A DNA stretch of 64,000 bases from Candidatus Nanoarchaeia archaeon (GTDB taxonomy: Archaea; Nanobdellota; Nanobdellia; Woesearchaeales; GW2011-AR4). The position numbers and the translations under genes are program-made. The notes below the pieces were generated by a model. That model was not told the DNA's origin, ran no database searches, and was given only the letters and a program-made list of their open reading frames with translations. The DNA lies in NCBI GenBank assembly GCA_035288865.1, contig DATDZA010000018.1, forward strand, positions 10,065 through 74,064, in the 5' to 3' direction. Below are positions 12,748 to 51,733 of this stretch, in pieces. Within the stretch, counting starts at the first letter, position 1, and the number at the start of each line of letters is the position of its first letter.

Positions 12748-12890
12748 CTTGGACGGCCATAGGGGCTTGGTATTACCTGATCCCATCTCGAAAGTAGGCA
12801 TTCAATGCCCGCCGAGTTCTCGGAAGTCAAGCAAGCCTCCGTTTCCAATCGTACTGTACTTATGTACGGGAGCCTGGAAAAGCTGTCCTC
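12748..12890 (+). rRNA. 5S ribosomal RNA (stand-alone gene) with an apparent internal insertion
   Basis: Matches conserved 5S blocks CCTGATCCCATCTCGAA, CTCGGAAGTCAAGC and GTACTG...GGGAGCCTGGAAA. The 5' GGACGGC pairs with 3' GCTGTCC as helix I. A T-rich tract (CCTTTTCTT) follows. Confidence 0.75.
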
Positions 12891-12896
12891 CTTTTC

Positions 12897-19902: not shown

Positions 19903-20541
19903 ATGAAAAAGACAAATATTTTTCTTATGACGGCTATAATTATTGTTTTGCTCTCAATAGTCGTATGGAGCCAGATTTCTCCAGTAAGCTATCTGCAAAC
20001 CAAAAATACTTCAATAACCCCCACAATAAAAATTGAGGAAACAAAAACATGCACAACTACTTTTTACAATCAAATACAAGATGTTTATGGCAACTGTGTT
20101 TATTACAGCAATTATACGAGCTGCCTAAATACCTCAGGACCATCAACAGACTGCTCATTAGAGCATAGTCAACGGAGTTTTAGCTGCAAGACAGGAGAGA
20201 CCATCATAGTAAATAATAGGACTGAATGCAAGCCGGATAATAAATTTCTGATAGTAATTGACAAAGGAAATGCCGTTGTTAAGAACCAAATAGATTCTTC
20301 AGATTGGGGACCTTGCGTTTACACCACTGAAAATAACTGCTTGATTGTAACTTGCGTATCTATCTATGATGGTGCACATAAAGGGCAATTTACAGACTGC
20401 AATAGCGGCAAAAGCTGCGAGAAATTTGAGATTTGTGATAATAGCGTGAAAACTTTCTACAAAAATTCAAGAGACGATTTTGCAGAGGATGATACAAGCT
20501 TCCATCTGAATAAATTATCAATTCAGGAGGTGGGACAATGA
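19903..20541 (+). CDS. secreted cysteine-rich protein (signal peptide, about 16 Cys)
   Basis: N-terminal hydrophobic signal (IFLMTAIIIVLLSIVVWS), many Cys, and several N-x-S/T sequons. Confidence 0.45.
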   Translation: MKKTNIFLMTAIIIVLLSIVVWSQISPVSYLQTKNTSITPTIKIEETKTCTTTFYNQIQDVYGNCVYYSNYTSCLNTSGPSTDCSLEHSQRSFSCKTGETIIVNNRTECKPDNKFLIVIDKGNAVVKNQIDSSDWGPCVYTTENNCLIVTCVSIYDGAHKGQFTDCNSGKSCEKFEICDNSVKTFYKNSRDDFAEDDTSFHLNKLSIQEVGQ

Positions 20542-21974
20542 AAAAGATTAATTTTATTTTAATCATCACAATGTTTTTATTAGTGTTACCTTTAGGATAC
20601 TCCCAAATTGCAGTTAATAATCTTGAAGAATGTTATTCTTTTGACATAGATGCCAATGGTGTAATGAACCGTTTTCCAGGAACAGTATCAGGAGCAACAC
20701 TTGTGCCAGGAGGCCCGGATGGGAATTATTATGCCTTTGATGGCAGCACATCTTATATCGATTTTGGCTCTGTAATTTTAAGAGATGAATCAAGAGCAGG
20801 AAATGGAACAATATACATAGTCTTTAAGATAAACACTACTTTAGGAAGTACTGTGGGAGTAGGGGGAAGGGAAGATGGAAGCAATAATAATTATCCTAAT
20901 TTAAGAAGAAATCCAGCCGCAGGAACAGGAGATGGCTTTAGATTTGCATGGATAAATGCTCCTCAAGACGATAACACAATAGACTTGACAACAGCCACCG
21001 CTTTCCCTGTAGATGAATGGCGAGGAGTGTTTATAACATGGAATTTAACTTCATCAGAAATGGCAATCAACGGAACAGTAAATGTCACATTCAATAATCC
21101 GAATACTGCTAATTTAAAGATGTATGCTGGTGCTAACAGCTTTGTTGTAGGGAAAGACCCAAGAACTTCTCCATTTTGGCTTCAGGGCGGAATAGCTGAA
21201 ATGGCAATATGGAATGCAACATTAAACGACAGAAATATGAGTGCATTATTTCCAAACGGCAAAATGGCAAATTGCACGCTGATAATCAATGGAACTCCAT
21301 CAGCAGCAGATACAACACCTCCAGAGATAAACTTTTACAATATGACTTCAGAAGGAGGCACAGGCTGCACTAACTGGAATGCAAATAAGTCAAACCCATG
21401 CGCAACAAACGACACAACTCCAACTACATTTTTTAGAACAAATGAGAATGCATTTTGTGCAGTAGGCATTTCTGATTTAAATTATTCTAATCTAGGAAGC
21501 AGCAGGAACTGCACGGGCGGGGAAGGCACAGCAGAACATACTTGCACTTTAACTATTCAAGACAAATTGACCCAAGCAAATTCAAACATTTATATAAGCT
21601 GCAAGGACTCTAATGAAAATCAAAATTCAACAAGCACAAGCGGTGCCTTGGCAATAAATCTATTCGCAAAGGAAACAGGCGCAGCCCAATCAATAGGAAT
21701 TGGCATACAAAACGCCCTGTTAAGTAGTTATTCTAATTACACAAACCAGCAAATTTCTGCGAGAGACATTAGCAATAACCAATTTCTTGGCACTTTTGAC
21801 TGGGTTGCAAGGAAAGGAAATAAAGTCTGGGCTTTAAATTACATCAGTTCTGGAGAAAGCCATGTTGCTGGCACTTTCAACATGACGCCTGTTTTGTATG
21901 TTCTGCAAATGACAAACACGACGCAGCAACAAGTCACTCTTGAAGTCGAAAGGATGATTAATGCAACTAAGTGA
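20538..21974 (+). CDS. secreted surface protein with concanavalin-A/LamG-like domain, sequon-rich
   Basis: Signal peptide. VPGGPDGNYYAFDGSTSYIDFG-type jelly-roll signature. More than 20 N-x-S/T sequons. ATGA overlap with the previous gene. Confidence 0.45.
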   Translation: MKKINFILIITMFLLVLPLGYSQIAVNNLEECYSFDIDANGVMNRFPGTVSGATLVPGGPDGNYYAFDGSTSYIDFGSVILRDESRAGNGTIYIVFKINTTLGSTVGVGGREDGSNNNYPNLRRNPAAGTGDGFRFAWINAPQDDNTIDLTTATAFPVDEWRGVFITWNLTSSEMAINGTVNVTFNNPNTANLKMYAGANSFVVGKDPRTSPFWLQGGIAEMAIWNATLNDRNMSALFPNGKMANCTLIINGTPSAADTTPPEINFYNMTSEGGTGCTNWNANKSNPCATNDTTPTTFFRTNENAFCAVGISDLNYSNLGSSRNCTGGEGTAEHTCTLTIQDKLTQANSNIYISCKDSNENQNSTSTSGALAINLFAKETGAAQSIGIGIQNALLSSYSNYTNQQISARDISNNQFLGTFDWVARKGNKVWALNYISSGESHVAGTFNMTPVLYVLQMTNTTQQQVTLEVERMINATK

Positions 21975-21980
21975 CTAATT

Positions 21981-23708
21981 ATGCTTATAGAAATATTTAA
22001 AACAAAAGTGCAGTTAAATAGCATTATTCTTTTTCTAGTTATTATTGTAATCTTAAATGTTGCAAGAGCCAATGAATGGACAGAATTTGGAGGAAATTTT
22101 AATGGAACCCATTACGTTCCTAATATTAGCAACGATAATTATGATTGGACCAATTTTAATATCTCAATAGGACAAGACCAAGAAATTTCAGTTGGCAATT
22201 TTGTAGGAGATTCTTCTATGGAAGCATTAATCTGGAATAACTCCAATTACAGGCTTTTTTTAATAAATTTGACTAATAGCGGCTCAATTATCCAGCAATT
22301 TAACATTAATGCCGCTTTATTAGGGGAGCCAACCGTTTTCAAAAGCAAATATTATGCTATTGTAAAAAGTAATATAGATACTAACAGCTATTTTTATGAA
22401 ATCAAGTTTAGTGAAAGCACATACAACGTAACTTATAATTTTAGCTTTGGAGATTCAAGTTTTGGAGTGCAAGTTGGCGTAAGATGTGCAACCACTAATG
22501 GCACTGATTATTGTATTTTTATTGATATTAACAATACAATATATCGTGTAGATGTTTCCAATAAGACATATACAAAATTTAAAAATGACTTTCTTGTACC
22601 TTTTGACTTAAGAGTTATGAAAAGAGTTCCAGCCTTAGCCGATATACAACAAGACGGCGGTCTAGATGCCATATTTACTTATACGAGCAATGACACTAGA
22701 TCTCCAGTAACTGTACAAACAGCTTCAATCTTTGTTTATGATATCCCAGCAAATGCGTCAAATAATGGATTTAATGGTAATGGACATGCTTTTGCATTAG
22801 ATGCAGGAACAAACGTACTTAACATTACACCAGCTTTCGTACATAAGTATAACAACCAAGACAATAGATTAGATATTACAACTGCAGCGCAAACAAATAA
22901 TCCTGAGTTAGTTATTTTTGATGCAAATGGAACTCGTTTATTTTACAGACATTCAAGCAATAACAGAGATTATACTACCATTCCTGTTTTATCAAATTGT
23001 AATTTTGACGGTCAATCAAGACTTGGAGTGCAATTTTTTACAGGTGAAGCTTCGTTATTTGATAATAGCTATCAGATGTTTTGGATACATCCTAATTTGA
23101 GCAGCGATTTTTCTGAACTAGGTCCAAGTGCAGGTGGAACTAACATAGAATCTTTTATAAAACAAACGCAAAGCATGGTAGCAGCCGACTTTAATGGAGA
23201 TGGGCAAAGCGAGCTTCTGTTTAGCTTTAGTAGATATGATAACGGGGCAACAACTTTATCTATAGTAAACTGCTCAAACTCCACTCATATTCTAAAAAAT
23301 TTGACAGGAATTGATAGCAACAAGCTAAGATACCATAACATAGTTGTTGATTTTGATAATGACGGAAGAAATGATATAATATTGACTACAGAAGGAAAAA
23401 CTTTGGTATTCAGGTCTAATCTTTTTGCTGATTTGGAAATAGTCAGCATCACTCCAGTTCAAGTCATTCCAGATGTAGACATGGTTCTTGGAAAGACTGG
23501 ATTGGTCAGAGTTAATGTTCGTAACAATGGCAATATAAACGCCAATGGGACGGTTACCATCACTTTCGAAGGAAACCAGCTTATTCAGTGGCAAGGTGAT
23601 AACAACACGAAACAAATCAATTCAAGCCTAACTGAGAATTTTGATTTTAGCTTTAGGCCAACAATGGCTGGAACGCAGATGTTTAGTACGAATGTGAGTA
23701 TTAGTTAA
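21981..23708 (+). CDS. secreted surface protein with FG-GAP/VCBS-like repeats and C-terminal CARDB-like domain
   Basis: Signal peptide. DFNGDGQSELLF and VDFDNDGRNDIIL match FG-GAP/VCBS repeats. A C-terminal β-sandwich segment (VRVNVRNNGN...TVTITFEG) looks CARDB-like. Many sequons. Confidence 0.45.
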   Translation: MLIEIFKTKVQLNSIILFLVIIVILNVARANEWTEFGGNFNGTHYVPNISNDNYDWTNFNISIGQDQEISVGNFVGDSSMEALIWNNSNYRLFLINLTNSGSIIQQFNINAALLGEPTVFKSKYYAIVKSNIDTNSYFYEIKFSESTYNVTYNFSFGDSSFGVQVGVRCATTNGTDYCIFIDINNTIYRVDVSNKTYTKFKNDFLVPFDLRVMKRVPALADIQQDGGLDAIFTYTSNDTRSPVTVQTASIFVYDIPANASNNGFNGNGHAFALDAGTNVLNITPAFVHKYNNQDNRLDITTAAQTNNPELVIFDANGTRLFYRHSSNNRDYTTIPVLSNCNFDGQSRLGVQFFTGEASLFDNSYQMFWIHPNLSSDFSELGPSAGGTNIESFIKQTQSMVAADFNGDGQSELLFSFSRYDNGATTLSIVNCSNSTHILKNLTGIDSNKLRYHNIVVDFDNDGRNDIILTTEGKTLVFRSNLFADLEIVSITPVQVIPDVDMVLGKTGLVRVNVRNNGNINANGTVTITFEGNQLIQWQGDNNTKQINSSLTENFDFSFRPTMAGTQMFSTNVSIS

Positions 23709-23734
23709 AAATGTTTTATGCAAGGTGATAAATT

Positions 23735-24106
23735 ATGAAAATTGCCGAAGAAAAAAGATATTTTAGTTATAAGAAATTCTTAATTGAATTTTTTAGACCA
23801 ACAAAATGGAAAATTATCTTAACTGCATTTTTTTCTCTATTAGTACTTCTAATATCTATTGGTATACCCTTACCTATATTAAGTAAGAGAGTCTATTTTA
23901 CTGATAGTTCTAAAATAGATCTCAACCCAATCCTTTACATGCCTATTAGTGCAATCTTAGAAACTTTTTCCATAAATATAAACTTTGGCAGTTTAGGCTT
24001 TTATATTTACATCTTATTACTACTTTTATATTATTATATAATTGCATCATTAAGTATTTTTATTTGTAGAATAGTTGTGAATTATTTAAAAAATGCAAGC
24101 AAATAA
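23735..24106 (+). CDS. hypothetical small membrane protein
   Basis: ORF with three hydrophobic helices. Confidence 0.3.
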   Translation: MKIAEEKRYFSYKKFLIEFFRPTKWKIILTAFFSLLVLLISIGIPLPILSKRVYFTDSSKIDLNPILYMPISAILETFSININFGSLGFYIYILLLLLYYYIIASLSIFICRIVVNYLKNASK

Positions 24107-26369
24107 AAGAAGTTTAATGTCGTTTTGTATATTTATAATGGTTTCGTACAGTGCATTAGGTATAGTAGATACTAATCCATCTAACAATTTTAAAAATATA
24201 ACTATAAGTGTTGCCACAACGCAGAAATTAGAGTTAACTTTCATCCCAATAGATAATCCGCTTGATTTTAATGTTACCGTTTTAGATTTCATAAAATTTT
24301 TTAATGCAACTTACCCAGTAGCAGATAATTACTTGACATTTACTTATGGTAAACCTTACGCAAGTCTACCAGAGGAAAAAAGTGACTTAGATAGGTTATT
24401 ATCTAAATTAGCAAGACGGGGAATACTAAGTTATAAGAGAACTATCGGTGTAGTTCCGAAATATTGGTTTAAGAACTATACAGTTTTAGCAACAGCTGAT
24501 GGGTATACCTTAGTTCAACATGGTATCGTGCTGTTTCCTGGTGGTATTGCCGAAGCAAGGAACCAAAGGCATATAGCCGCACATGAGATTGGGCATACTT
24601 TTGGATTGTGTGACGAGCACTCTTCAAGTTACTGGAATTCTCAGAATAAAATAGCAGCGGTGCCTGGCTTTTGTCCAAATGGCGATGTGGATAATAACGA
24701 AGTTTTAGATTCAAATTGTGAGCCTTTAGGTTGTGCTACATCCACAATAAATAGAGTAATACCCTGGATTAACTCTACTGGGGAGGTTAATTTATACAAT
24801 CTTATGGGTAGTGCCGACCAAGACTCTGCATGGATTTCCAATGAGAGTTATCTACATTTATTAAACAAATTCAAACAAAATTCTTTGATTGCTGTAACTG
24901 GACTAGTTTTGAGTGGGATAATTAATAAATCAAGTGAAGCTATAGACGTATATCCTTCTTATATAATCAACAATGTTGAAATAACACAACCAAATACAAC
25001 AGTGAATGGAAATTATTCAATAGAGATTCTAGATAATGATAGCCAAGTAACTTCAAAAATTAATTTTACTCCATCATTTTTAGATGTGGGTTTTAATGGA
25101 AGTAGTATTGAGACAAATATAATTTATTTCATTGTTGTCATGAACTTTTCTTCAAACAATAAAGGTTTCAGGATTAAAAATAATGATGTGGTGAAAAAAG
25201 AAATAAACAAAACGCCCAATACCCCCTCACTCAACCTTACCTTTCCCTTCGGCAACGAAGTTGTTTCCAACAAAATGAATATTACTTATAATTCTTCTGA
25301 TTCTGATGGGGATATCCCAAATTACGCAATCTTAATATCATCAGATAACGGAAGTTCATATTCAACCCTAGACATAGATGTAGTAAACAAATCTTTTTTC
25401 GTAAACACATCCGATTTGCCCGAGGGCAAAAATTACTTAGTAAAAGTCTTAGCAACAGACGGAATCAACACAAACACAACGGTTTCTGAAAATACTTTTG
25501 AGATTGATAATGATTTGAGAATAACAAATTTAACAACGCTAAATCAAAACAGCACTAAGGAAATATTTTATTATGAAACCAAGAACACTTTAGAAACTCC
25601 TTTAACAAATGTTTCTGAACAATTGAATACAGGCGAATCAACAGTCCAGTTCACAACAAATCATTCTTTAAACTCAAACGAAAATATTATGGTATTCGTA
25701 GCTTACGATTATAACACTACAGGAACTAAAACTTTAACAGCAACTGCAACCTCTGGCTCTTACGTTGAGATAGAATCATCAACCATAATAGTTCCAGACA
25801 TAGAAATAAAAGATTTTATGATTTTAAACCAAAGCATAACAAAAAGATTGTTTGGATTTATCATCTTAAACAACTTAAACCAGACTATAAGTAATCTGAA
25901 CTGGACTTTAAGCACTCAATTAGGAAATATCTCATTGCCGCAATTTGTTTCTTTAACATCAAATCAAAACCTGTTCAATTTCGTGTTTTATGATTTTGTA
26001 AATAAGGGAAATTATAATATAACTATAACCGCTTCAAACGGAAGCATTAATGCTTCACAAAGCATGGTAATTAAGGTTAAAGACATAAGAGTGGATAATT
26101 TAACAGTTGCATTTGACAACAACACAAACAAGATATTTAATTTCATAATAAGCAATGACTGGAATTCAAGTTTGCCTGCTGTGAATTGGACATTGAATAA
26201 CAGCCAAAACATTACCATATCTAATAATTTGATAAGTCTTGTTCCGGGTGAAAATATATTGGTTTATGTCAATTCTAACTTTACATCAACTGGAAACTTT
26301 AATGTAAATGCGAGTGCAATTAACGGAACAACTTTGGATTCGGAATTGACAAGCGTTAGTGTAACTTAA
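24093..26369 (+). CDS. secreted zinc metallopeptidase (metzincin-like) with three C-terminal Ig-like repeats
   Basis: Signal peptide. Zinc-binding HEIGHTFGLCDEH (HExxHxxGLxDEh, as in M6/M7/M64-type metzincins). The C-terminal third is three ~95-aa sequon-dense repeats. Confidence 0.6.
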   Translation: MQANKRSLMSFCIFIMVSYSALGIVDTNPSNNFKNITISVATTQKLELTFIPIDNPLDFNVTVLDFIKFFNATYPVADNYLTFTYGKPYASLPEEKSDLDRLLSKLARRGILSYKRTIGVVPKYWFKNYTVLATADGYTLVQHGIVLFPGGIAEARNQRHIAAHEIGHTFGLCDEHSSSYWNSQNKIAAVPGFCPNGDVDNNEVLDSNCEPLGCATSTINRVIPWINSTGEVNLYNLMGSADQDSAWISNESYLHLLNKFKQNSLIAVTGLVLSGIINKSSEAIDVYPSYIINNVEITQPNTTVNGNYSIEILDNDSQVTSKINFTPSFLDVGFNGSSIETNIIYFIVVMNFSSNNKGFRIKNNDVVKKEINKTPNTPSLNLTFPFGNEVVSNKMNITYNSSDSDGDIPNYAILISSDNGSSYSTLDIDVVNKSFFVNTSDLPEGKNYLVKVLATDGINTNTTVSENTFEIDNDLRITNLTTLNQNSTKEIFYYETKNTLETPLTNVSEQLNTGESTVQFTTNHSLNSNENIMVFVAYDYNTTGTKTLTATATSGSYVEIESSTIIVPDIEIKDFMILNQSITKRLFGFIILNNLNQTISNLNWTLSTQLGNISLPQFVSLTSNQNLFNFVFYDFVNKGNYNITITASNGSINASQSMVIKVKDIRVDNLTVAFDNNTNKIFNFIISNDWNSSLPAVNWTLNNSQNITISNNLISLVPGENILVYVNSNFTSTGNFNVNASAINGTTLDSELTSVSVT
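25510..26366 (+). repeat. three tandem ~285-nt intragenic repeats encoding sequon-dense β-sandwich modules
   Basis: Protein segments starting ITNLTTLNQNS..., IKDFMILNQSIT... and VDNLTVAFDNNT... share a NLT/NxS-rich pattern. Confidence 0.45.
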
Positions 26370-28672: not shown

Positions 28673-29539
28673 CTATTTCTTTCCTTTTCCCATCATCGCA
28701 ACATAATAATGGTAGATTGTATTGCCTTTGTAATGCACTATAAAAGAAATGATCTGAATTAAGACAGAAACGCTTCCGTATATCATTAAGTACCAATAAA
28801 GCATCGAGTATTTAGGCAATGCATTCCAGTAATAATTGTTTAATGTTTCCAATAAAACTAAGATGTTAATGTGGATTATGTTAAAAGGGGCGCCCCAGAA
28901 TTCCTTAATAAAATCATAAGTATGATATAATTTTGCTCCTGTTTCTGTTGAGCCGCCTTCAACATTTGGGCTCTTTCCGACTATTGAAGAGTATTTTTTT
29001 AATTTTTCGTCACTTCTGTTATTTTTTCTGTCTCTTATTGCATTCTTGACTACTGCAGACTTTATGGCTGACAGAACAGTTGACCTTGAAAATACTCCGC
29101 ACAGAAATCCGAAAATTACTGCTGACTTGTAGCCAGTTGCTAGAAATATCCCAAAACCCAAACTGAAAAAAATTAATGGGACTGACAATTCATGATAATA
29201 TTGCTCCAGAAAAGTTCCCATCATGCTTCCTTCTTTCCTGTACCGTGCGACTTCACCGTTAACGTTGTCTAAAATAACTGTGAAATGAATTATTAAAATT
29301 CCTATTAACATTAATTTTAATGTTCCAAATGTCATGAAAGCTGAACCCAGGATAGCCAATAAAATCATGCCAATCGTAATCATGTCCGCACTTATTGGGG
29401 TGTATAAAAGCAATTTAGTGACGTAAATAGAAATTTTCATGGTCACCCATTCCATGTACAATGGTCTTCTGCTTTTTGAATCCTTGTAGCAGATTTCCCT
29501 TAGTTCTTTTATGGATTCTACCATTGTAATTAAAGTCAA
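28673..29539 (-). CDS. CDP-alcohol phosphotransferase-family membrane protein (variant motif)
   Basis: LDNVNGEVARYRKEGSMMGTFLEQYYHE approximates DG(x)2AR(x)8G(x)3D(x)3D, with terminal E/H substitutions. Multi-TM. Confidence 0.45.
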   Translation of the reverse strand: MTLITMVESIKELREICYKDSKSRRPLYMEWVTMKISIYVTKLLLYTPISADMITIGMILLAILGSAFMTFGTLKLMLIGILIIHFTVILDNVNGEVARYRKEGSMMGTFLEQYYHELSVPLIFFSLGFGIFLATGYKSAVIFGFLCGVFSRSTVLSAIKSAVVKNAIRDRKNNRSDEKLKKYSSIVGKSPNVEGGSTETGAKLYHTYDFIKEFWGAPFNIIHINILVLLETLNNYYWNALPKYSMLYWYLMIYGSVSVLIQIISFIVHYKGNTIYHYYVAMMGKGKK

Positions 29540-29550
29540 GAATAGGATAT

Positions 29551-30426
29551 TTAAAGGTATCTTTTAAGATTTATGTGATTTCTTAGATTCTTTAGTACCG
29601 AATAAGGAATTTTCAGCTTTCCTAAAACCTGGTCGGGCCGTCCGTGAAAATCCGAGCCGCCGGTTTCCAATATATTTTTTTCTTTTACGATTTTTCTGAA
29701 TTCGCTGATTGTTTTTGCATTTGCCCTTTTTCCGGTGTGGTATCTTGATGTTTCATAAGAATAATATGTTTCAATCCCATCACCGCCATTTTTCAGGAAG
29801 TAGTCAATGAATTTGTCTATGTTAAAATTATTATAAACTCCCGGGTGCGAAATAAAAACCAAGCCATTTGCCGCATGAACTGCCTTTATCGCTTCTTTTA
29901 TGCTTATTTTATTTCTTCGTTCAACATAAGCTAATTTTCCGACTGACAAATATTTGTCAAAGGCTTCATCAAATGAATTTACTTTATCAGGATTATTTTT
30001 TATTATTATTTTTGCGATATGGGGCCTTCCAATTTCTCCTTTTGCTATTGCCTTTACCTCATCAAATGTTATCTTAAATCCCAGTTTCCTGAATTTAGTT
30101 ATTATTTCTTTTTTTTGCCTCTCTCTGCAAGTTCGCGCTTTTTTTATTAAAGACTTAAGTGTTTTGTTTTTGTGATTGATAAATAAACCCAAGATGTGCG
30201 TATCAACATAGCCTTTGTCGTCGCAGCTTATTTCGACTCCCGGAACTATTTCAATATTTTTTCCTTTAGCCGCTATTATTGCCTCATCAATTCCGTTGAA
30301 AGAGTCATGGTCCGTTATTGCGATTGCGCTGAGGTTTTTTTTTATAGCGAGTTCAACAAGCTTTCTTGGAGAAAGCTTACCGTCTGATGCTGTAGTGTGG
30401 CACTGCAAGTCTATATTTTTCATCAT
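29551..30426 (-). CDS. PHP-domain phosphoesterase (TrpH/YciV family; pAp phosphatase or RNase AM-like)
   Basis: IDLQCHTTASDGKLSP...AIAITDHDS N-terminal PHP metal-binding motifs, further His motifs (ISHPG..., GSDFHG) and ~290-aa length. Confidence 0.75.
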   Translation of the reverse strand: MMKNIDLQCHTTASDGKLSPRKLVELAIKKNLSAIAITDHDSFNGIDEAIIAAKGKNIEIVPGVEISCDDKGYVDTHILGLFINHKNKTLKSLIKKARTCRERQKKEIITKFRKLGFKITFDEVKAIAKGEIGRPHIAKIIIKNNPDKVNSFDEAFDKYLSVGKLAYVERRNKISIKEAIKAVHAANGLVFISHPGVYNNFNIDKFIDYFLKNGGDGIETYYSYETSRYHTGKRANAKTISEFRKIVKEKNILETGGSDFHGRPDQVLGKLKIPYSVLKNLRNHINLKRYL

Positions 30427-30429
30427 GGA

Positions 30430-30960
30430 TTATAAAATAATTTTAGATTTAATTACTTTCAGCAATTTACCTACAGATTCCTCGACTGACTCCCTGTCAG
30501 TATTAAGCGTCAAGTCCGGATTTTTAGGCTCTTCATATTTTGAAGAAGTGCTCAAGAAATTCTCAAATCCCTTTTCCTTTCTTTTGGCTTTCTTGTAATG
30601 CCCTTTTACATCCCTTTGTCTGCATATCTCGAGCGGGCATTTTACATGGACTAAAAGCATTTTTTTCAGAATACTCTTTGCGTATTCCCTTGAGCTTTCT
30701 GTAGGTGAAGCAACAGATGCTATAACAAGAACTCCATTTTTAGATATTATTCTGCATATTCCGGCTACTCTTTTCATGTGCTTATTTCTTTCTTCAACTG
30801 TGTATCCCAAATCAGAGGAAACAGTTTTTCTTATTTCATCTCCATCTACAATCACAACACTAATCTTATCATGCCTTAGCTTGTCTGCCAGCCCGGAAGC
30901 AATGGTTGACTTTCCAGCTCCGTGATGGCCTGTAAACCATATTGTCCAAGATTCTTTCAT
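30430..30960 (-). CDS. cysC: adenylyl-sulfate (APS) kinase
   Basis: FTGHHGAGKST (P-loop), VDGDEIRK and GFENFLSTSSKYEEPKNPDLTLNT, matching the CysC signature GFTGIDSPYEAPENPEL. Confidence 0.85.
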   Translation of the reverse strand: MKESWTIWFTGHHGAGKSTIASGLADKLRHDKISVVIVDGDEIRKTVSSDLGYTVEERNKHMKRVAGICRIISKNGVLVIASVASPTESSREYAKSILKKMLLVHVKCPLEICRQRDVKGHYKKAKRKEKGFENFLSTSSKYEEPKNPDLTLNTDRESVEESVGKLLKVIKSKIIL

Positions 30961-31844
30961 TTTCCTGCCGATTTGTTTCTTGTTTTAACTGCTTTTTTAA
31001 GGTTTTCCAAAATGTTTTCAGGTATCTGTATTTCTCCCAAAGTTGACCTGTACATATCATGGTGGTCATTCCCGCCGCTTTCGAGCAGGTTTTTTGATTT
31101 TACAATTTTTTTATAAAATTTATTTAATTGTTCATTACCATCCCTGTCAATTTTAAGCTCAGGGCATACTATGTGGTACGGGTAATAAGTTTCTATGCCG
31201 TCGCCGCCACTGGCAATAAAATGATCAACAAGCTTTAATGAATGTTCTCTTGGATAAATGCCCGGATGGGCAAGTATAGCCAATCCTTTTGCCTGCTTTA
31301 TTATCCTTATTGCATCTGCTACAGATACTCTGCTCTCAGTCTTTACAAAAGCTTTTTTCCCTCTTCCAATAAGTTTGTCAAAAACATCCCTCACAGAAGA
31401 GAATTTATCAGGATACTTTTTGATAAGGTATTTTGCAATATGCGGCCTTCCAAAAGTTCCGCCAACAGTTTTTTTTACATCGCTGTAAGTTATCTTGTAT
31501 CCTAAATACCTTAATTTTCCAATTATGAGCTTTTTGTTTTCCTCTCTTTTGAAATTTATGTGTTTAATTAGATTTAGAAGTTCTTTATTCTTATAATCTA
31601 TAAATAATCCAAGCACATCTATCTTTTCATAAGAAAAAAGCGGGTCATCACAGCTGAGCTCCACACCAGGGATTATTTCTATGTTTTTTCCTTTAGAGTA
31701 TTCTATGGCTTTTCTTAATGATCCAACAGAATCATGATCGGTAATTGCAATAGCGCTTAACTTCTTTTTTATCGCCAGCTCTATCAATTCCTCCGGGGAT
31801 AGTTCTCCGTCAGAGGCTGTTGTATGGCTTTGCAGGTCTATCAT
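30957..31844 (-). CDS. PHP-domain phosphoesterase (paralog of 29551..30426)
   Basis: MIDLQSHTTASDGELSP...AIAITDHDS. Collinear with the other PHP paralog. Overlaps cysC by 4 nt. Confidence 0.75.
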   Translation of the reverse strand: MIDLQSHTTASDGELSPEELIELAIKKKLSAIAITDHDSVGSLRKAIEYSKGKNIEIIPGVELSCDDPLFSYEKIDVLGLFIDYKNKELLNLIKHINFKREENKKLIIGKLRYLGYKITYSDVKKTVGGTFGRPHIAKYLIKKYPDKFSSVRDVFDKLIGRGKKAFVKTESRVSVADAIRIIKQAKGLAILAHPGIYPREHSLKLVDHFIASGGDGIETYYPYHIVCPELKIDRDGNEQLNKFYKKIVKSKNLLESGGNDHHDMYRSTLGEIQIPENILENLKKAVKTRNKSAGK

Positions 31845-31886
31845 TTTAGGTAATGGAAGTCAGTAACTATTTCACATTATTTCTTA

Positions 31887-32510
31887 TTATCTCTTCAGCA
31901 GCAATGCAAGCCTTTTTGCCAGCTTTTCAAACCTGCCCGAACCAATTTCAATTTTTTTTACAGGAATCATCTTCACGAACTCTTTTCCATTTTTATCTTT
32001 GAATATCTCTTTTTTGCCGAAAGAACTGTCAACAGTATAGGGCTGGCCTATATTGTCCCGGAATGGAAATACTTTGATGTGGAGGTGCTCCTTTTTCTCT
32101 TTCCATGTAGTGCACTTGCCATAGGCTGCAACAGGTGCGGAAGAGATTTTCTGTTCGGCGTTGGCCAATAAATTTTCGTTTTGCATCAAAATCACCGTCA
32201 TGGCCCTGCAAATCCTGGAAAATGACAATCCAAAATTTTCTGCCATTCCCTGATATGCGCCGATCTGGGAAAAATGAGTAAGATGGGATATCGGCATAAG
32301 CTGTATTGTAAAATCAAATTCAGGATTGCCCCCGGTTTGTGGGGACAAAGTAGCGAACCAGCCGTTTTTTTTATTCCCTATTTTAAAAATAACCGCACCA
32401 TATCCGGTTTTTTCTCCGACTTTATAGGCTGCATCTTTGCATAAATTACAATTCTTTTTTTGGCCGGCATTCTCCTGCAGAAGCTTTTCTGCTTCCTTGA
32501 CCGCGTGCAT
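31887..32510 (-). CDS. HIT-superfamily GalT/Apa2-branch-like nucleotidyltransferase/phosphorylase (tentative)
   Basis: N-terminal CNLCKD (CxxC, as in GalT/Apa2 zinc sites) and HLHIKVFPF (HxH-x-K in place of HxHxQ). The 207-aa length is typical of Ap4A phosphorylase/ADP-sulfurylase-like proteins. Confidence 0.4.
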   Translation of the reverse strand: MHAVKEAEKLLQENAGQKKNCNLCKDAAYKVGEKTGYGAVIFKIGNKKNGWFATLSPQTGGNPEFDFTIQLMPISHLTHFSQIGAYQGMAENFGLSFSRICRAMTVILMQNENLLANAEQKISSAPVAAYGKCTTWKEKKEHLHIKVFPFRDNIGQPYTVDSSFGKKEIFKDKNGKEFVKMIPVKKIEIGSGRFEKLAKRLALLLKR

Positions 32511-32511
32511 T

Positions 32512-33597
32512 TCAGTCGACCGCCTTTATGTATTCATAATCCCTTCTGCCGCTTAAATAAGAGTCAAAATAACCGACAACAAGCCTGTGATATTTTTTTC
32601 CGGATTTAGGAATCACTTCCTCAACAACGCCGCTCGCCTCAATTTTTTCATTTTTATATGCAAGCATGCAGTAGTCCCTTGAGTAAAAAACTACTTTGCT
32701 TATGGCGGCATTTGTGCACGTTGAATCGCCATCAAGAAATCTTGAATCAGAAATCAAATAGCAGCCAGGCCTGACCACTGAATTTTTATGGTCTCCGACC
32801 AAACCAATATATTTTGCCTGCCCAATTCTTCTGTATTTTTCACTGCCCCACTTGAACCATGCTTCATTTTCAAGCTCGACGGCGAATATTACAAACAAGG
32901 TCCCCTTGAAGAAGCCTTCTGACTTTTTTCTGTGCATATTTTCTATATATTTCTCCTTTTTATGCACCATATGCCTGTTGCGCTTTTTGTAGAATGATTC
33001 CCACTCGCTGTAAGTTTTCCACCTTAGGCCTTTGTTGGATGTTTTTTTAAGAAATTCCATAAGGCTCCAAAATTTATTTTTTCCATAAACCACGATGTTT
33101 ATGTCAGACATATTGGGTGAGTAATGGCCCATAAGTGTCGAGTAGGTTATCCCAAAATCTTCAGGCTTGAGGCCGCTTTTTAAAAGCAGCGACACAAGCT
33201 CAACCACATTCCTAAGGTGCTGGTCCAGGTCTTTATCCGGCATTCCCATAAGCTGTGCCAGGCCCTCTCTTGGGGAATATTCCCTTTCTATATTTTTTTT
33301 TGGCACTGCAAAAAACAGGGGGCTTTTGTCGTGAACAGGGCTCCTGAAAATGTACTGGGGATAAGCCTTTGCAAATGAATTAATGTATTGCGTAAGCTTT
33401 TCAGTGTCAATCCACAAATCCAGGCGGTTCATCTTTCTTCCGGAAATAAATCTGTAGGACAGAGCGTCGCTTGAAATTATATCGGTAGGAATATATTTTG
33501 GCTTGATCAAAACCCTGCCTTCAGGATGCTGATTGCCATAAACTTGGCAATGCAATCCGTCAATTGTGGTAATTATTGAAGATTCGTAAAAGTGCAT
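32512..33597 (-). CDS. Polβ-superfamily nucleotidyltransferase-domain protein, paralog A (DxN variant)
   Basis: Central MGHYSPNMSDINIVVYGK aligns with the minimal-NTase GS...SDIDL motif, with the second acidic residue replaced by N. The likely start is the MHFYES methionine at 33597, not the upstream ATG of the track ORF. Confidence 0.55.
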   Translation of the reverse strand: MHFYESSIITTIDGLHCQVYGNQHPEGRVLIKPKYIPTDIISSDALSYRFISGRKMNRLDLWIDTEKLTQYINSFAKAYPQYIFRSPVHDKSPLFFAVPKKNIEREYSPREGLAQLMGMPDKDLDQHLRNVVELVSLLLKSGLKPEDFGITYSTLMGHYSPNMSDINIVVYGKNKFWSLMEFLKKTSNKGLRWKTYSEWESFYKKRNRHMVHKKEKYIENMHRKKSEGFFKGTLFVIFAVELENEAWFKWGSEKYRRIGQAKYIGLVGDHKNSVVRPGCYLISDSRFLDGDSTCTNAAISKVVFYSRDYCMLAYKNEKIEASGVVEEVIPKSGKKYHRLVVGYFDSYLSGRRDYEYIKAVD

Positions 33598-33598
33598 T

Positions 33599-34708
33599 TT
33601 AAAAACCCGACTTAATAAATTCTTTTTCTCTCCTTTCATTGAGATAAGCGTCAAAATAACCGATTACCAGCCGGTAATATTTCGTGCCTTTTTTAGGAGT
33701 CACCATCTCAAGGAGCCCGCAGGCAGTTATTTCTTCCCCTTTCAGTGCCTGCTGCACAAAAGGGATTGAGTATGTCACAACTCTTTTGATTTCCAAAGAA
33801 CCATCAATTTTTATATTTTTTAAATGAAAATCTATTATTTTTCCGTTTGTAATTTCATAAAATCCTGGTCTCACATGGCTGTTATAATGATCTGTAACTT
33901 TTCCTTTTATTGTGACCGTTCCCAGCGGCTCAAATTTGTCCTCGCCCCATCTGAACCAGGTTTCCTGAGGCTCTTCAACAGTAAATAATGTGAAAACTGT
34001 GCCGGAGAACATTCCTTCATACCTTTTTCTCCTCATATGGTCGACATATTCTTTTTGCGTGAATTGCACTGATTCCGAAGTTTTATGCTCCTGATAATAT
34101 CTTTTCCATTCTTCATCAGTTTTCCAGTGCAATTTTTCATGCTTTGCATTTTTGAGATAATTAAAAATTTTCCATCCGTTGCCCTTGCCGTAGATTATTA
34201 TATCAATGTCGGACTTTCCAATAGTATAATTTCCCATTAAAGTAGAATGTGTTATGCCGAGATTTTCAGGCTTTACTCCGCTTTTTGCCAGGAATTCGAT
34301 GAGTTCCATTACGGAAATCAAATATTCATCCAAGTCTTTTCTTGGAACCTGCATTAGCTCCTGCAGGCCTTTCCGTGGATCATGGATTGCGATTATTTTT
34401 TCTCTCGGAACAGCAAAAAACCAGTTTTTGGTGTCATTGCAGTTATATATATAGTCAGGAAATTTTTTCTTGAACTGCACGACATAAGACTTGAGCTTTT
34501 CCTTGTCTGCAAACAAATTAAACCTTATCATGCATTTTTCAAATAAAAATCTGTACTTCAGGCCGCTGCCTTCCAGCGCATTTTTAGGTATGTATTTGGG
34601 CTTGACTATAACATATCCTTTGGGGTGCTCGTTCGAGTACGATTTGCACTGAAACCCGTCCACAGTATCCAGCAATATTGATTCGTAAAAATGCATATAA
34701 ATCACCAA
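33599..34708 (-). CDS. Polβ-superfamily nucleotidyltransferase-domain protein, paralog B (intact DxD)
   Basis: MGNYTIGKSDIDIIIYGK (G-S...DxD). Same tri-partite layout as paralog A. The likely start is MHFYES at 34696. Confidence 0.55.
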   Translation of the reverse strand: MVIYMHFYESILLDTVDGFQCKSYSNEHPKGYVIVKPKYIPKNALEGSGLKYRFLFEKCMIRFNLFADKEKLKSYVVQFKKKFPDYIYNCNDTKNWFFAVPREKIIAIHDPRKGLQELMQVPRKDLDEYLISVMELIEFLAKSGVKPENLGITHSTLMGNYTIGKSDIDIIIYGKGNGWKIFNYLKNAKHEKLHWKTDEEWKRYYQEHKTSESVQFTQKEYVDHMRRKRYEGMFSGTVFTLFTVEEPQETWFRWGEDKFEPLGTVTIKGKVTDHYNSHVRPGFYEITNGKIIDFHLKNIKIDGSLEIKRVVTYSIPFVQQALKGEEITACGLLEMVTPKKGTKYYRLVIGYFDAYLNERREKEFIKSGF

Positions 34709-34812
34709 AAACTTATTGTAAATGTATTATTCTATTCTATTTAAATTTAACTTAATGCGATAAGGAAACCAGTCTGTAATAAATTATGCTAGTTCAGATT
34801 TTAATCTGCATT

Positions 34813-35898
34813 TTATTTTAAATCTTTAAGAATTTTATTTAATTTTTCTGATAATTTTTTCCAGTCAAAGTTTATAACATCTTCACCATAATCTGGCCTG
34901 GAATTATTTTCAAGCTTGAGCATTATCTTCTCGCTGAAATCATCAACATTGCCGGGAGAAGCCAGGCTTCCATTATATTTCTTAAGCATAAATGAAACAT
35001 CTCCGATGTCGGTTGCAACAATCGGAACATTGCATGCCAAGTATTCCGCTAATTTATACGGGAAGCAGTATTTAGTAAATTCGTTTGCTGTATTTGGAAT
35101 AACAGCAACATCAGCAGAATTAATTCCCAGAACAACATCCTCCCTTTTTGGAAAAGCCCTAAATATGATATTTTTCTGCTTTATGTTAAGCCCTTTTTCA
35201 ATCTCTCCGCTCAGGAGAAGATAGGTATCAGGAAAATCCTGCTTTACTTTGCTAAAAGAATGAAGCAGTATATTGGCGCCTTTTAATTTCTCAAGATGGC
35301 CAATGTATACTATAATTTTGGATTTTAATGGTAATTTTAATTTTTTTCTTGCTTTTTCCCTATCTATAGGCTTGAATAAATCTAGCTCAATTCCGTTTTG
35401 AATAACGTACGTCGGCTTTTTCCTTGTCTTTGAAACATACTCCTTCAAACTCTCGCTGACCGTCAGAACAATATCAGCTTCATCAACAGCTTTTTTATGA
35501 AAATATGAAACAAAAGGAAACCTGTATGTATCATATGTTTCAAAATTATCCTGCAGGTCATATATTAAAGGTAAATGAAATTTTTTTGATAGGTGATTAC
35601 CCAGAGCACCAATTAACGGGTCAGATGATGCTACAATAACATCATAATTTTCTTTTTTAATTAATTTTTTTGCTTCATCGATAAAAGAAAATATTGAAAA
35701 AAATGATACCGGGGCAATAAAGAAACTCACACCATTTCTTTTAATAATCTTGGATTCTTTTTTTGTATAATCCGGGCATAGAAAATCAATTTGATGCTCT
35801 TTTGCCAGATTTTCAAACAATCTTATCTGGCGCCCGAAATAGGTGAGAACCATGTCCTTATTGGCGCCAAAGCGCTTCATTATGACGAGAATTTTCAT
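34813..35898 (-). CDS. family 4 (GT-B) glycosyltransferase
   Basis: GT4 fold, C-terminal CNVPIVATDIGD region, 361 aa. Confidence 0.7.
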   Translation of the reverse strand: MKILVIMKRFGANKDMVLTYFGRQIRLFENLAKEHQIDFLCPDYTKKESKIIKRNGVSFFIAPVSFFSIFSFIDEAKKLIKKENYDVIVASSDPLIGALGNHLSKKFHLPLIYDLQDNFETYDTYRFPFVSYFHKKAVDEADIVLTVSESLKEYVSKTRKKPTYVIQNGIELDLFKPIDREKARKKLKLPLKSKIIVYIGHLEKLKGANILLHSFSKVKQDFPDTYLLLSGEIEKGLNIKQKNIIFRAFPKREDVVLGINSADVAVIPNTANEFTKYCFPYKLAEYLACNVPIVATDIGDVSFMLKKYNGSLASPGNVDDFSEKIMLKLENNSRPDYGEDVINFDWKKLSEKLNKILKDLK

Positions 35899-35922
35899 TT
35901 TTTTAATTAGATTTTAATTATT

Positions 35923-36906
35923 TTAATTAATATTATTTTTATAATAATTTCTGTACCACTCAATCGTTTCTTTCAGGCCTTGTTCAATTGTGTATTTTGG
36001 CCGCCATTTCAGCAATTTCTGAGCTTTTTCCGTTGCAAGATACTGCCTGTCAATTTCATTTTTTGCCTGGCCGAGGATTTTAGGTTTTGTATTTTTTCCC
36101 ATCAGTTTTATTATTTTATTGTATAAATCAATGACGCTTATGGGTTTTGAAGTTCCAAAATTAAATGCCTGCCCGACAACTTCTTTCCTATGCAGGTTTT
36201 CTGCCAATGTCAAATAAGCGCTGACGGCATCCTTGATGTACAGATAATCCCTTTCTGGAGTGCCGTCACTTCTTATCACAGGCTGTTCTCCCAGAAGTAC
36301 AGTAGTTATCACATCCGGAATAATCCTGCTCATGTTCATATCAGCTGGGCCGTATGTGTTTGCATTCCTGGTTATAGCTAATGGCAGATTGTAAGTCATA
36401 AAATAGCATCTTGCAAGAATCTCAGCGCACGCTTTTGATGCGTCATAAGGATAATACCCGTTTAATGGGGATTCTTCGGTGTAAGGCAATTTTTTTTGTT
36501 GGCCGTAGGCTTTGTCTGATGATGCAATAATTAATCCTTTAACGGTCTTTGATAATCTTGAAGTTTCCAGAATGTTCCATGTTCCTTTTATGTTGGATTC
36601 GAATGTTGACAGCGGGCTTCTGTTCGCAGGGCCCACAATTGCCTGAGCTGCAATGTGGAAGACAAACTGAATGTCATATTCATTTATGGTTCTTTCGCAA
36701 TCATGAAAATTAACTAAATCACCGTGTATAATACTAACTTTATTTCTTAATCCCAAAACGTCAATGTTGCTTGTTTTTTTAACGTCCCGGACAATTGTTG
36801 TTACAACTGCTCCTTTGTCGACCAACGCTTTTGCAATATGGCTTCCTATAAATCCGTCTGCTCCGGTAACCAGAACATTCATGCCTTTCCAGCTTATTTC
36901 AGCCAT
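35923..36906 (-). CDS. rfbG: CDP-glucose 4,6-dehydratase
   Basis: SWKGMNVLVTGADGFIGSH, SSDKAYG, YDASKACAE (YxxxK). Collinear with DdhB/RfbG-type enzymes. Confidence 0.75.
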   Translation of the reverse strand: MAEISWKGMNVLVTGADGFIGSHIAKALVDKGAVVTTIVRDVKKTSNIDVLGLRNKVSIIHGDLVNFHDCERTINEYDIQFVFHIAAQAIVGPANRSPLSTFESNIKGTWNILETSRLSKTVKGLIIASSDKAYGQQKKLPYTEESPLNGYYPYDASKACAEILARCYFMTYNLPLAITRNANTYGPADMNMSRIIPDVITTVLLGEQPVIRSDGTPERDYLYIKDAVSAYLTLAENLHRKEVVGQAFNFGTSKPISVIDLYNKIIKLMGKNTKPKILGQAKNEIDRQYLATEKAQKLLKWRPKYTIEQGLKETIEWYRNYYKNNIN

Positions 36907-48958: not shown

Positions 48959-49088
48959 CTTCTGTCATCTTAAACTGTTATTTATCTTTTTCAAACAATG
49001 AATTTTATTCTCCCACCAGTTCTTTATTTTTGTTTTCATCTTCTGTCATCTTAAACTGTTACTTGTCTTTTTCAAACAATGAATTAAT
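48927..49088. repeat. perfect-register tandem duplication of an 81-bp unit (2 copies, 3 mismatches)
   Basis: TTCTCCCACCAGTTCTTTATTTTTGTTTTCATCTTCTGTCATCTTAAACTGTTA... occurs at 48927 and again at 49008. It spans the stop of the GAPDH-family gene and the start of the methyltransferase gene. Confidence 0.85.
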
Positions 49089-50105: not shown

Positions 50106-50150
50106 ACAATTTGGTATGCCCCGGGCATTTAAAAATATTCCTAAATTCCT

Positions 50151-50594: not shown

Positions 50595-50595
50595 C

Positions 50596-51732: not shown

Positions 51733-51733
51733 A

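Follow-up and report, generated by a model that had tools for sequence, protein, structure and literature searches.

A gene triad of DPANN archaea that may stand in for ATP sulfurylase in a surface-glycan island

The gene string and its APS kinase

Positions 28673-34696 (minus strand) of the window, the whole 64-kb stretch of DNA that was analysed, hold a single tightly packed gene string that lies, as the initial annotation had recognised, within a surface-glycan island. The archaeon is a tiny DPANN symbiont of Nanoarchaeia/Woesearchaeota-like type. The genes run in the order NT-A, NT-B, HIT, PHP-2, CysC, PHP-1 and a CDP-OH-transferase-like (CDPOH-like) membrane protein, with the following features:

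34697..34812, minus strand: AT-rich intergenic region of 116 bp upstream of NT-A, containing the stretch TTTAAATTTAAATA
33599..34696, minus strand: NT-A, 365 aa, Pol-beta-type nucleotidyltransferase with a C-terminal OB fold; triad gene 1
32512..33597, minus strand: NT-B, 361 aa, NT-A paralog; triad gene 2
31887..32510, minus strand: HIT, 207 aa, divergent zinc-type HIT-fold protein; triad gene 3
30957..31844, minus strand: PHP-2, 295 aa, PHP-domain phosphoesterase (PF02811)
30430..30960, minus strand: CysC, 176 aa, archaeal-type adenylyl-sulfate (APS) kinase by homology (PF01583, TIGR00455)
29551..30426, minus strand: PHP-1, 291 aa, PHP-domain phosphoesterase (PF02811)
28673..29524, minus strand: CDP-alcohol phosphatidyltransferase-like membrane protein (PF01066, 25.2 bits), the last gene of the operon

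The unit first described consisted of HIT, PHP-2, CysC and PHP-1. These four open reading frames are real and occupy the minus strand at the coordinates listed, but the two genes upstream, NT-A and NT-B, had been missed. Similarly, the 4-nt overlaps reported on both sides of cysC are found on one side only, where PHP-2 and CysC share a 4-nt ATGA, whereas a 3-nt gap separates CysC from PHP-1. The TTTAAATTTAAATA stretch is a candidate archaeal TATA-like promoter that could drive the string from NT-A to the CDPOH-like gene.

CysC scores 149 bits against PF01583 (cutoff 21.1) and 167.5 bits against TIGR00455 (curated cutoff 138.7), and its best solved relatives are the archaeal and cyanobacterial APS kinases 7yq0, 2yvu, 5cb6 and 8a8h, with E-values of about 1e-36. 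The P-loop GxxGxGK[ST], the DGD motif, the archaeal-type EERxxH and the [IS]SP motif are all present, as GHHGAGKST, VDGDEIR, EERNKHMKR and VASP, and align with those of 7yq0, 2yvu and 8a8h. By homology, CysC is an APS kinase, and its initial description as a clear one is borne out by profile scores above the cutoffs and by the motifs of solved APS kinases. A role like that of Cj1415 in the Campylobacter phosphoramidate pathway was considered and set aside, as the motifs are those common to solved archaeal APS kinases and as the same clade pairs with canonical ATP sulfurylase (Sat) in sister islands.

The NT-A, NT-B and HIT proteins

The 207-aa protein had been called HIT-like and likened to the GalT/Apa2 branch. 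It does have the HIT alpha/beta fold, and it carries C21xxC24, H76, the motif E-H142-L-H144-I-K146 and a lysine-rich segment ahead of this motif. Across its family, in which the His at the nucleophile position, the zinc-binding residues and the basic pocket are all retained, the motif reads E-H-L-H-[ILV]-K with both His invariant; an invariant Lys occupies the position of the third His, and the histidine triad H-phi-H-phi-H-phi-phi is thus absent. The GalT/Apa2 assignment, which implies a tandem pair of HIT half-domains spanning ~300-350 aa, the motif H-x-H-x-Q and GalT or Apa2 as the closest structure, does not fit the protein. The profile comparison of 31887..32510 that the initial annotation proposed matched no HIT subfamily in Pfam, NCBIfam or the PDB: there is no Pfam or NCBIfam match at E≤0.01, HIT-clan profiles such as PF01230, PF11969, PF01087 and PF02744 included, and no sequence match in the PDB by phmmer or even by family profile. 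Searching 1.84 billion representative proteins with the HIT-family profile returned 48 relatives only, none of which connects the family to a named HIT subfamily.

HIT enzymes known to process APS by way of an AMP-enzyme intermediate include Fhit, Hint4 and DcpS (PMC4613722). Unlike these enzymes and the Ap4A phosphorylase Rv2613c, and more distantly GalT and Apa1/Apa2, the HIT protein has no sequence-level match to HIT entries of Pfam or the PDB; unlike Fhit, Hint4, DcpS and Rv2613c, it is also restricted to DPANN, obligately linked to two nucleotidyltransferase paralogs and at times fused to one of them. From HIT enzymes acting on APS or Ap4A it further differs by the invariant Lys and by a 60-aa C-terminal extension of its own. 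The known HIT activities on APS are all degradative in direction (PMC4613722), whereas the direction proposed below is APS synthesis, in which no HIT enzyme has been shown to run.

NT-A and NT-B are paralogs with 44% identity, each pairing a Pol-beta nucleotidyltransferase fold with an OB fold, and the signature hG[GS]x9-13Dh[DE]h and the fold of the Pol-beta superfamily were both found; neither protein has a match in Pfam, in NCBIfam, or in the PDB by phmmer or profile search. The nucleotidyltransferase triad signature is intact in NT-A (H150, D163-x-D165), which of the two paralogs is the one predicted to be catalytically active. NT-B carries the invariant changes D165N and H150Y, with Y150 and N165 found in 36/36 orthologs, and is likely a non-catalytic or altered partner subunit. 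The fold of NT-A, a TUTase/GLD2-like nucleotidyltransferase with a nucleic-acid-type OB fold, resembles an RNA- or oligonucleotide-directed enzyme more than a sulfate-directed one, which counts against a role in sulfate activation.

Wherever the adjoining flank is long enough, NT-A and NT-B accompany HIT (38/43 GTDB loci), and NT-B::HIT fusions occur at L016:8900-10630 and in P0363. The triad as a whole is confined to DPANN, and at the loci examined it always lies within glycan islands and never beside RNA-processing genes. The HIT protein had been proposed as a non-canonical enzyme working alone; it is never solitary, being the third gene of the NT-A/NT-B/HIT triad. A literature search found no described system of this kind.

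A position shared with ATP sulfurylase

Related islands that have their flanking genes in common carry, in the slot immediately ahead of cysC, either canonical ATP sulfurylase or the NT-A/NT-B/HIT triad. The upstream flank of these islands comprises NTP-transferase, SDR, GT4 and sometimes PK-like genes, and the downstream part CysC, sometimes PHP, CDPOH-like, flippase, SDR, NTP-transferase and UGDH genes. Sat-type islands are L049 (PUA_2 plus PF01747, 251.8 bits), L051/L060 and L062; triad-type islands are the window, L050, L052, L058, L061, L063, L065, L067, L069, L084 and L085. Among the distinct loci found via CysC, 10 carry the triad, 3 carry Sat, none carries both and 1 carries neither; L086 is such a CysC locus, with neither nearby, which counts against a replacement of Sat by the triad. 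The CysC clade of the window also adjoins canonical Sat in L049, L051 and L062, in indirect support of phosphorylation of APS at its 3'-OH, and the CysC proteins of Sat-type and triad-type islands are mutual nearest relatives, at 72-74% identity.

The Sat motifs QxRNPxHxxH and GRDHAG are missing from the window, none of its triad proteins has a Pfam match, and a scan for Sat/CysD motifs found none in any frame of the 64 kb nor in the first 48 related loci, in agreement with the initial statement that the window holds no sat or cysDN. That Sat sits at the same position in related islands indicates a substitute, so the earlier idea of APS made by something non-canonical stands in this respect; the unit concerned, as opposed to what had been thought, would be the triad. 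It is taken to be the whole triad because HIT never occurs alone and is sometimes fused to NT-B. NT-A, NT-B and HIT, occupying the exact slot of the sulfate-activation gene that this operon lacks, may represent a new route to activated sulfate.

With the known Sat-CysC-CysQ cassette, the gene string shares an archaeal-type CysC and the order activation enzyme, kinase, phosphoesterase, and its flanking glycan genes match those of the sister DPANN islands with canonical Sat. It differs in that two Pol-beta nucleotidyltransferase/OB proteins and HIT fill the Sat slot, and in having phosphoesterases of the PHP family rather than of the CysQ/IMPase or DHH families. Other loci add connections of this kind: L016 reads Sulfotransfer_2, NT-A, NT-B::HIT and an IMPase/CysQ::APS-kinase fusion, and Sulfotransfer_2 genes adjoin the triad in L040-L042. 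The IMPase/CysQ::CysC and PHP::CysC fusions, with the adjacent Sulfotransfer_2 gene, link the triad with PAPS metabolism. Against this, 18-20 of some 43 triad loci (about 40%) lack CysC within 10 kb and carry alkaline-phosphatase-family genes instead, so the triad product may be used otherwise, or may not be APS.

PHP-1 and PHP-2 are 49% identical; among solved structures they are related to 9etk, 3e0f, RNase AM (7ug9) and the pAp phosphatase Cv1693 (2yb1), with E-values of 1e-23 to 1e-25 against 2yb1 and 7ug9. They share with Cv1693 and RNase AM/RNase RNM (YciV) the PHP fold, most metal ligands, the GRPH arginine and the stacking Phe, but differ from them in both score and active site. PHP-1 reaches 161.6 bits against NF041577 (pAp phosphatase) and 167.3 bits against NF047791 (RNase RNM), and PHP-2 reaches 135.1 and 149.2 bits, all below the equivalog cutoffs of 400 and 375 bits, respectively. 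Measured against the RNase AM active-site residues H13, R141 and R201 (PMC9410882), the R141 equivalent (GRPH, 5'-phosphate pocket) is retained in 48/51 family members, the R201 equivalent (scissile-phosphate contact) has become Val or Ile in 41 of 46, and the H13 equivalent, the first His of HxH, has become Gln in 30 of 51, the two window copies among them. Scores this far under both cutoffs and active-site positions that differ do not support the earlier link of these proteins to pAp phosphatase.

Unlike Cv1693 or RNase AM/RNM, the family is also split into HIT-linked and CysC-linked paralogs. The PHP-1 type always lies directly downstream of CysC, Sat-type islands included, and the PHP-2 type directly downstream of HIT or, where a HAD gene comes after HIT, of that gene; PHP-2 is present at 33/43 triad loci, and is fused as PHP-2::CysC in L015 and as HAD::PHP-2 in L063. 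What had been described as duplicated pAp-phosphatase candidates are thus not equivalent duplicates but position-specific paralogs, PHP-1 being the better candidate for a pAp (3',5'-ADP) phosphatase. A recent redundant duplication was rejected on the grounds of their degree of identity and of each type holding its own position across lineages.

A possible route to activated sulfate and its alternatives

Genomic context and predicted folds give a roughly even chance (about 0.5) that 28673-34696 is a PAPS-supply/recycling cassette for surface glycan or lipid sulfation in which NT-A/NT-B/HIT replaces ATP sulfurylase, the replacement being argued from gene displacement at the Sat slot. The triad would be a counterpart of ATP sulfurylase by functional analogy only, not by homology. 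In such a pathway, NT-A, NT-B and HIT would form a complex that carries out the first step (sulfate + ATP to APS) in place of the canonical enzyme. NT-A would bind ATP and transfer the adenylyl group in the Pol-beta manner, NT-B would serve as its catalytically altered partner, and HIT would form a covalent AMP-His144 intermediate and hand the AMP to sulfate in the lysine-rich pocket that includes K146. Such chemistry is made plausible by the action of known HIT enzymes on APS, by the residues that the HIT family retains and by the intact signature of NT-A. CysC would then convert APS to PAPS, pulling the unfavourable equilibrium, and the PHP phosphoesterases would remove pAp or other nucleotide by-products after sulfuryl transfer. 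APS formation is thermodynamically uphill, and the triad contains no obvious extra driving force, which counts against this reading.

To our knowledge, only two types of enzyme activate sulfate, Sat and CysDN. Like CysD/CysN, the triad would be a multi-subunit system in which a catalytic subunit is joined by a second subunit of another role (compare NT-A and NT-B, predicted to be active and altered, respectively); unlike CysD, a PP-loop ATP pyrophosphatase, and CysN, a GTPase, its members show no homology to either and have no visible GTPase or other energy-coupling domain. We propose only tentatively that the triad is a third, evolutionarily independent sulfate-activating class, a Pol-beta heterodimer with a HIT adenylyl-transfer subunit, feeding a non-canonical sulfation machinery.

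The triad might instead be unrelated to sulfate, acting as a nucleotide/oligonucleotide module that shares the glycan-island hot spot or as the maker of another nucleotide-activated donor for phospho-type surface decoration, with Sat located elsewhere when needed. In one form, a terminal nucleotidyltransferase could act with a HIT de-adenylylase or decapping-like enzyme and a PHP 5'-3' exonuclease/phosphatase, in keeping with the resemblance of NT-A to TUTase/GLD2-type enzymes, its nucleic-acid-type OB fold and the presence of RNase AM among the PHP relatives. Most deep-branching triad loci are without CysC and have PF01663/PF00884 alkaline-phosphatase-family genes instead, HD, HAD and metallophosphoesterase genes replace or join PHP, and CysC homologs such as Cj1415 can phosphorylate other nucleotides. 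This account is nevertheless rather unlikely, as triad and Sat exclude each other at one identical position in CysC-anchored islands, as CysC proteins of this clade are partnered by canonical Sat in sister islands, as the IMPase/CysQ::CysC fusion and the sulfotransferase gene adjoin the triad in L016, and as the triad keeps to glycan islands away from RNA-processing genes.

Very improbable is a placement of the triad downstream of APS/PAPS, either as a consuming transferase or as a salvage or quality-control unit, with APS coming from the host or another source; HIT could, for instance, keep APS in check as an APS phosphorylase or adenylylsulfatase, regulated by the nucleotidyltransferases. 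DPANN archaea do rely on hosts for many metabolites, the role is vacant in that the window has no recognisable sulfotransferase, and degradation is the known direction of HIT enzymes on APS (PMC4613722). A consumer would, however, be expected to co-occur with Sat, leaving the exclusion of Sat and triad at the same locus unexplained, and classical sulfotransferase genes adjoin the triad in L016 and L040-L042. It is likewise improbable that HIT alone, as a GalT/Apa2-type enzyme, forms or recycles APS and that the nucleotidyltransferase-like genes upstream are unrelated neighbours: its fold with an intact nucleophile His, its place within the cysC operon and the ability of HIT enzymes to interconvert APS with ADP or AMP (PMC4613722) favour this, and its constant company of NT-A and NT-B argues against it.

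If the triad does activate sulfate, sulfur biochemistry would gain an unrelated third solution of textbook rank, HIT would be the first enzyme of its kind to act in the synthetic direction, and functions would be assigned to two sizeable orphan families that Pfam does not yet model. Many DPANN archaea would then sulfate their own cell surfaces, which mediate host attachment. The prediction is directly testable, as three small soluble proteins (NT-A, NT-B and HIT) are involved.

Neither a sulfotransferase nor a sulfate transporter is recognisable in the window, which counts against the cassette reading, and a 5'-PSB motif scan for sulfotransferases found none there. One candidate sulfotransferase would be the CysC-linked CDPOH-like membrane protein, in which His takes the place of the catalytic Asp. 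Barely over the PF01066 cutoff of 22, it shares with its CysC-linked orthologs the motif D-N-V-N-G-E-V-A-R-x7-G-x3-E-x3-H, which departs from the canonical CDP-alcohol phosphatidyltransferase motif D-x2-D-G-x2-A-R-x7-8-G-x3-D-x3-D, and its gene stays beside CysC/PHP whether the island is of the Sat or the triad type. Other candidates would be Thr/Ser-nucleophile 'sulfatase'/NPP-family proteins, the donor being PAPS or, in lineages without CysC, perhaps APS directly. A further link to PAPS comes from genes of the sulfatase family, whose pairs come after CysC in L085 and L086 and border the module in L004.

The gene string and its APS kinase

The source organism belongs to the DPANN archaea. RadB and MBF1-like proteins are encoded in the window, and the MAGs closest to it (70-97% protein identity) carry the labels Nanoarchaeia, Woesearchaeota or Nanoarchaeota. 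A compact gene string occupies 28673-36906 on the minus strand, listed here from its upstream end.

Genes and spacer of the string
35923-36906, minus, CDP-glucose-4,6-dehydratase-like SDR, the most upstream gene
34813-35898, minus, GT4 glycosyltransferase, second in the string
34697-34812, minus, AT-rich spacer of 116 bp between GT4 and NT-A
33599-34696, minus, NT-A, 365 aa
32512-33597, minus, NT-B, 361 aa
31887-32510, minus, HIT-fold protein, 207 aa
30957-31844, minus, PHP-2, 295 aa
30430-30960, minus, CysC, 176 aa
29551-30426, minus, PHP-1, 291 aa
28673-29524, minus, CDP-alcohol-transferase-like membrane protein, the downstream end

From NT-A to the CDP-alcohol-transferase-like gene, the spacers are 1, 1, 42, -4 (an overlap), 3 and 26 nt; of the 4-nt overlaps that the initial annotation placed on both sides of CysC, one is present and the other is a 3-nt spacer. 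The identity of CysC as an APS kinase is solid. It scores 149 bits against PF01583 and 167.5 bits against TIGR00455 (cutoff 138.7), and among proteins of solved structure it is nearest to archaeal and cyanobacterial APS kinases, the Methanothermococcus enzyme 8a8h among them, with which it has the P-loop, DGDxxR, EERxxH and SP motifs in common. At the pathway level, the string is the same as the Sat-CysC-pAp-phosphatase cassette of PAPS supply, but at the enzyme level, proteins unrelated to Sat (the canonical ATP sulfurylase) and to CysDN seem to carry out the first step. The window and the first 48 related loci were free of both Sat and CysD signatures.

Sat and the triad at one position

Additional loci, collected through CysC instead of the HIT protein, include sister islands whose flanking genes are identical in kind and order to those of islands with the NT-A/NT-B/HIT triad. 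Upstream lie an NTP-transferase, an SDR, a GT4 and sometimes a pyruvate-kinase-like gene; downstream lie CysC, sometimes a PHP, a CDPOH-like membrane protein, a flippase, an SDR, an NTP-transferase and a UDP-glucose dehydrogenase. Directly upstream of cysC is a canonical ATP sulfurylase in the related loci L049 (PUA_2 plus PF01747, 251.8 bits), L051/L060 and L062, and the triad in the window, L050, L052, L058, L061, L063, L065, L067, L069, L084 and L085. Among distinct CysC-found loci with enough flank, 10 have the triad, 3 have Sat, none has both and one has neither, the last being L086, whose contig ends 5.1 kb upstream. A script count of all loci with a DPANN-clade CysC, leaving out L084-L086, gave 22 loci with the triad, 3 with Sat, none with both and none lacking both, a result biased toward the triad, since searching with the HIT protein had supplied 16 of these loci. 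In sequence similarity, CysC proteins from Sat-type and triad-type islands are intermingled: that of L049 (Sat type) is nearest to that of L013 (triad type, 74% identity), and that of L051 (Sat type) shares 72% identity with that of L061 (triad type) and just 69% with that of L049.

Non-orthologous gene displacement classically leaves such a pattern, which is the main reason for proposing, from genomic context and predicted folds, that the triad supplies APS to CysC. The observation in the initial annotation is confirmed, and its interpretation holds in part: the idea of a non-canonical activation step is right, with Sat and the triad alternating at one position in sister islands.

Immediately upstream of Sat or the triad, many islands encode a pyruvate-kinase-like protein with a PK barrel plus PK_C (L009:6446-7837, L021:5398-6810, L049:7179-8858, L050:4037-5464, L051:7145-8863), the shorter forms (L009, L021) having a MarR-like winged helix at the N-terminus; the gene is absent from the window.

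Composition and possible mechanism of the triad

The 207-aa protein has no sequence match in Pfam, NCBIfam or PDB, and belongs to a highly conserved family (310 homologs, 60-97% identical) in which C21, C24, H76, H142, H144, K146 and numerous lysines are invariant. By its AlphaFold model, built on the homolog alignment (pLDDT 86.6), it clearly has a HIT fold, with a Foldseek probability of 0.99 to Fhit and Hint at weak E-values. The HIT part of the initial assignment to the GalT/Apa2 branch is thereby borne out; the branch itself is not, the protein being a single-domain, zinc-type HIT protein with the motif H-x-H-x-K. An exhaustive search of 1.84 billion representative proteins with the family profile returned just 48 relatives and no bridge to a named HIT subfamily.

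The HIT protein had been thought to substitute for ATP sulfurylase alone, an idea opposed by NT-A and NT-B preceding its gene in all 38 loci with sufficient flank (of 43 collected via HIT, from distinct GTDB species) and by NT-B::HIT fusions in two independent sequences, L016:8900-10630 and P0363. NT-A and NT-B are paralogs (44% identical) with no sequence match in Pfam or PDB. The model of NT-A (pLDDT 93.5) predicts a TUTase-like nucleotidyltransferase part and, at the C-terminus, an OB fold of the type that binds nucleic acids. H150, D163 and D165 are present in 36/36 distinct NT-A orthologs, and Y150, D163 and N165 in 36/36 NT-B orthologs, a fixed difference that suggests one catalytic and one altered subunit.

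Because HIT enzymes are known to process APS by way of an AMP-enzyme intermediate (PMC4613722), AMP might be passed from His144 of the HIT subunit to sulfate in a lysine-rich pocket; NT-A would bind ATP, with NT-B as its altered partner, and CysC and the phosphoesterases would pull the reaction forward. Sulfate is not an obvious acceptor for the TUTase-like nucleotidyltransferase part and the OB fold of nucleic-acid type predicted in NT-A. Forming APS is energetically unfavourable, and no energy-coupling domain was seen in the triad proteins. We found no description of such a sulfate-activation system in the literature, and there is a realistic chance that the triad represents a truly novel enzyme class for sulfate activation.

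Three classes of triad locus can be told apart: about 24 with CysC and PHP, about 16 with PF01663/PF00884 alkaline-phosphatase-family neighbours and no CysC within 10 kb, and 3-4 with Sulfotransfer_2 and an HD-domain protein. For the second class, either CysC lies elsewhere in the genome, APS is used directly, or the triad's product is broader than APS. In these CysC-less loci (L019, L022, L024, L025, L031, L032, L035, L037-L039, L043-L046, L048), the triad is flanked by one or two genes of the PF01663 (NPP/alkaline-phosphatase) family, 460-520 aa in length, which often have a conserved ~81-aa ORF ahead of them (e.g. L031:6187-6432); the presence of PF01663 genes and that of CysC are nearly exclusive.

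Phosphoesterases, sulfotransferases and the surrounding island

PHP-1 and PHP-2 both match PF02811, are 49% identical, and count the pAp phosphatase Cv1693, RNase AM, 3e0f and 9etk among their relatives; their scores of 135-167 bits lie below the NCBIfam equivalog cutoffs of 375-400. When residue roles reported for RNase AM (PMC9410882) are applied to the PHP family, the 5'-phosphate-pocket arginine (GRPH) is retained in 48/51 members, the scissile-phosphate-contacting arginine is Val or Ile in 41/46, and Gln takes the place of the first metal-binding His in 30/51, both window copies included. They are not the simple duplicates they had seemed, as each type keeps its own position. PHP-2 always directly follows HIT, or a HAD gene that follows HIT; present in 33 of the 43 triad loci, it belongs to the triad and may clear a by-product of its reaction. 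PHP-1 always directly follows CysC, even in the Sat-type L049, which makes it the stronger candidate of the two for the PAPS cycle's pAp phosphatase. Some lineages have another phosphoesterase inserted after HIT: a HAD-like protein of 271-273 aa (L013:10617-11432, L043:10546-11367, L050, L058), a 302-aa metallophosphoesterase-like protein assigned by eye (L015:12078-12986) and, in place of PHP, a 248-aa HD-domain protein (L041:10540-11286).

Further ties to PAPS metabolism are found in L016, where Sulfotransfer_2 (PF03567, 33 bits), NT-A and NT-B::HIT are followed by a fusion protein that joins an inositol-monophosphatase/CysQ-family domain (172 bits) to an APS kinase domain (154 bits). L063 has a HAD::PHP-2 fusion, and L015 a PHP-2::CysC fusion that a single-base assembly error could mimic, given the 4-nt overlap of these genes in the window. 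In L040-L042, too, the triad has Sulfotransfer_2 neighbours. Conserved pairs of "sulfatase-family" genes (PF00884 plus SGSH_C) come directly after CysC in L085 (8600-11073) and L086 (5743-8316) and flank the module in L004 (4363-6832); the window's pair (54812-56206 and 56221-57369) lies about 24 kb from CysC. At the formylglycine position these have [ST]-x-P-S-[IV] in place of C/S-x-P-x-R, so they are unlikely, judging by this motif, to be classical formylglycine sulfatases.

The CDP-alcohol-transferase-like protein adjoining CysC/PHP (window 28673-29524; L049:11471-12289 and orthologs) has the motif D-N-V-N-G-E-V-A-R...G...E...H, as against the canonical DxxDGxxAR...G...D...D, and keeps it in Sat-type and triad-type islands alike; the window's second paralog (45252-46100) is nearer the canonical form. 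More speculatively, the protein could be a PAPS-using membrane transferase.

Elsewhere in the window, a stand-alone 5S rRNA gene (12749-12891, plus strand; Rfam RF00001, 50.2 bits) is the only rRNA gene, and no tRNA gene was found within the 64 kb. Four successive large secreted/surface proteins very rich in N-x-S/T sequons (19903-26369, plus strand), one with a Laminin_G_3 domain, one with FG-GAP repeats and a 758-aa member with an HExxH-like motif (HEIGHTFG), are probably surface glycoproteins that the island around them serves. A second biosynthetic cluster (49059-54628 and 57770-60626) comprises GAPDH-like and 3-dehydroquinate-synthase-like genes, two SDR genes, a DUF4147/MOFRL gene, presumably glycerate-kinase-like, two NTP-transferase genes and a class I/II aminotransferase gene, and could produce an unusual activated sugar, cyclitol or glycerate-type decoration.
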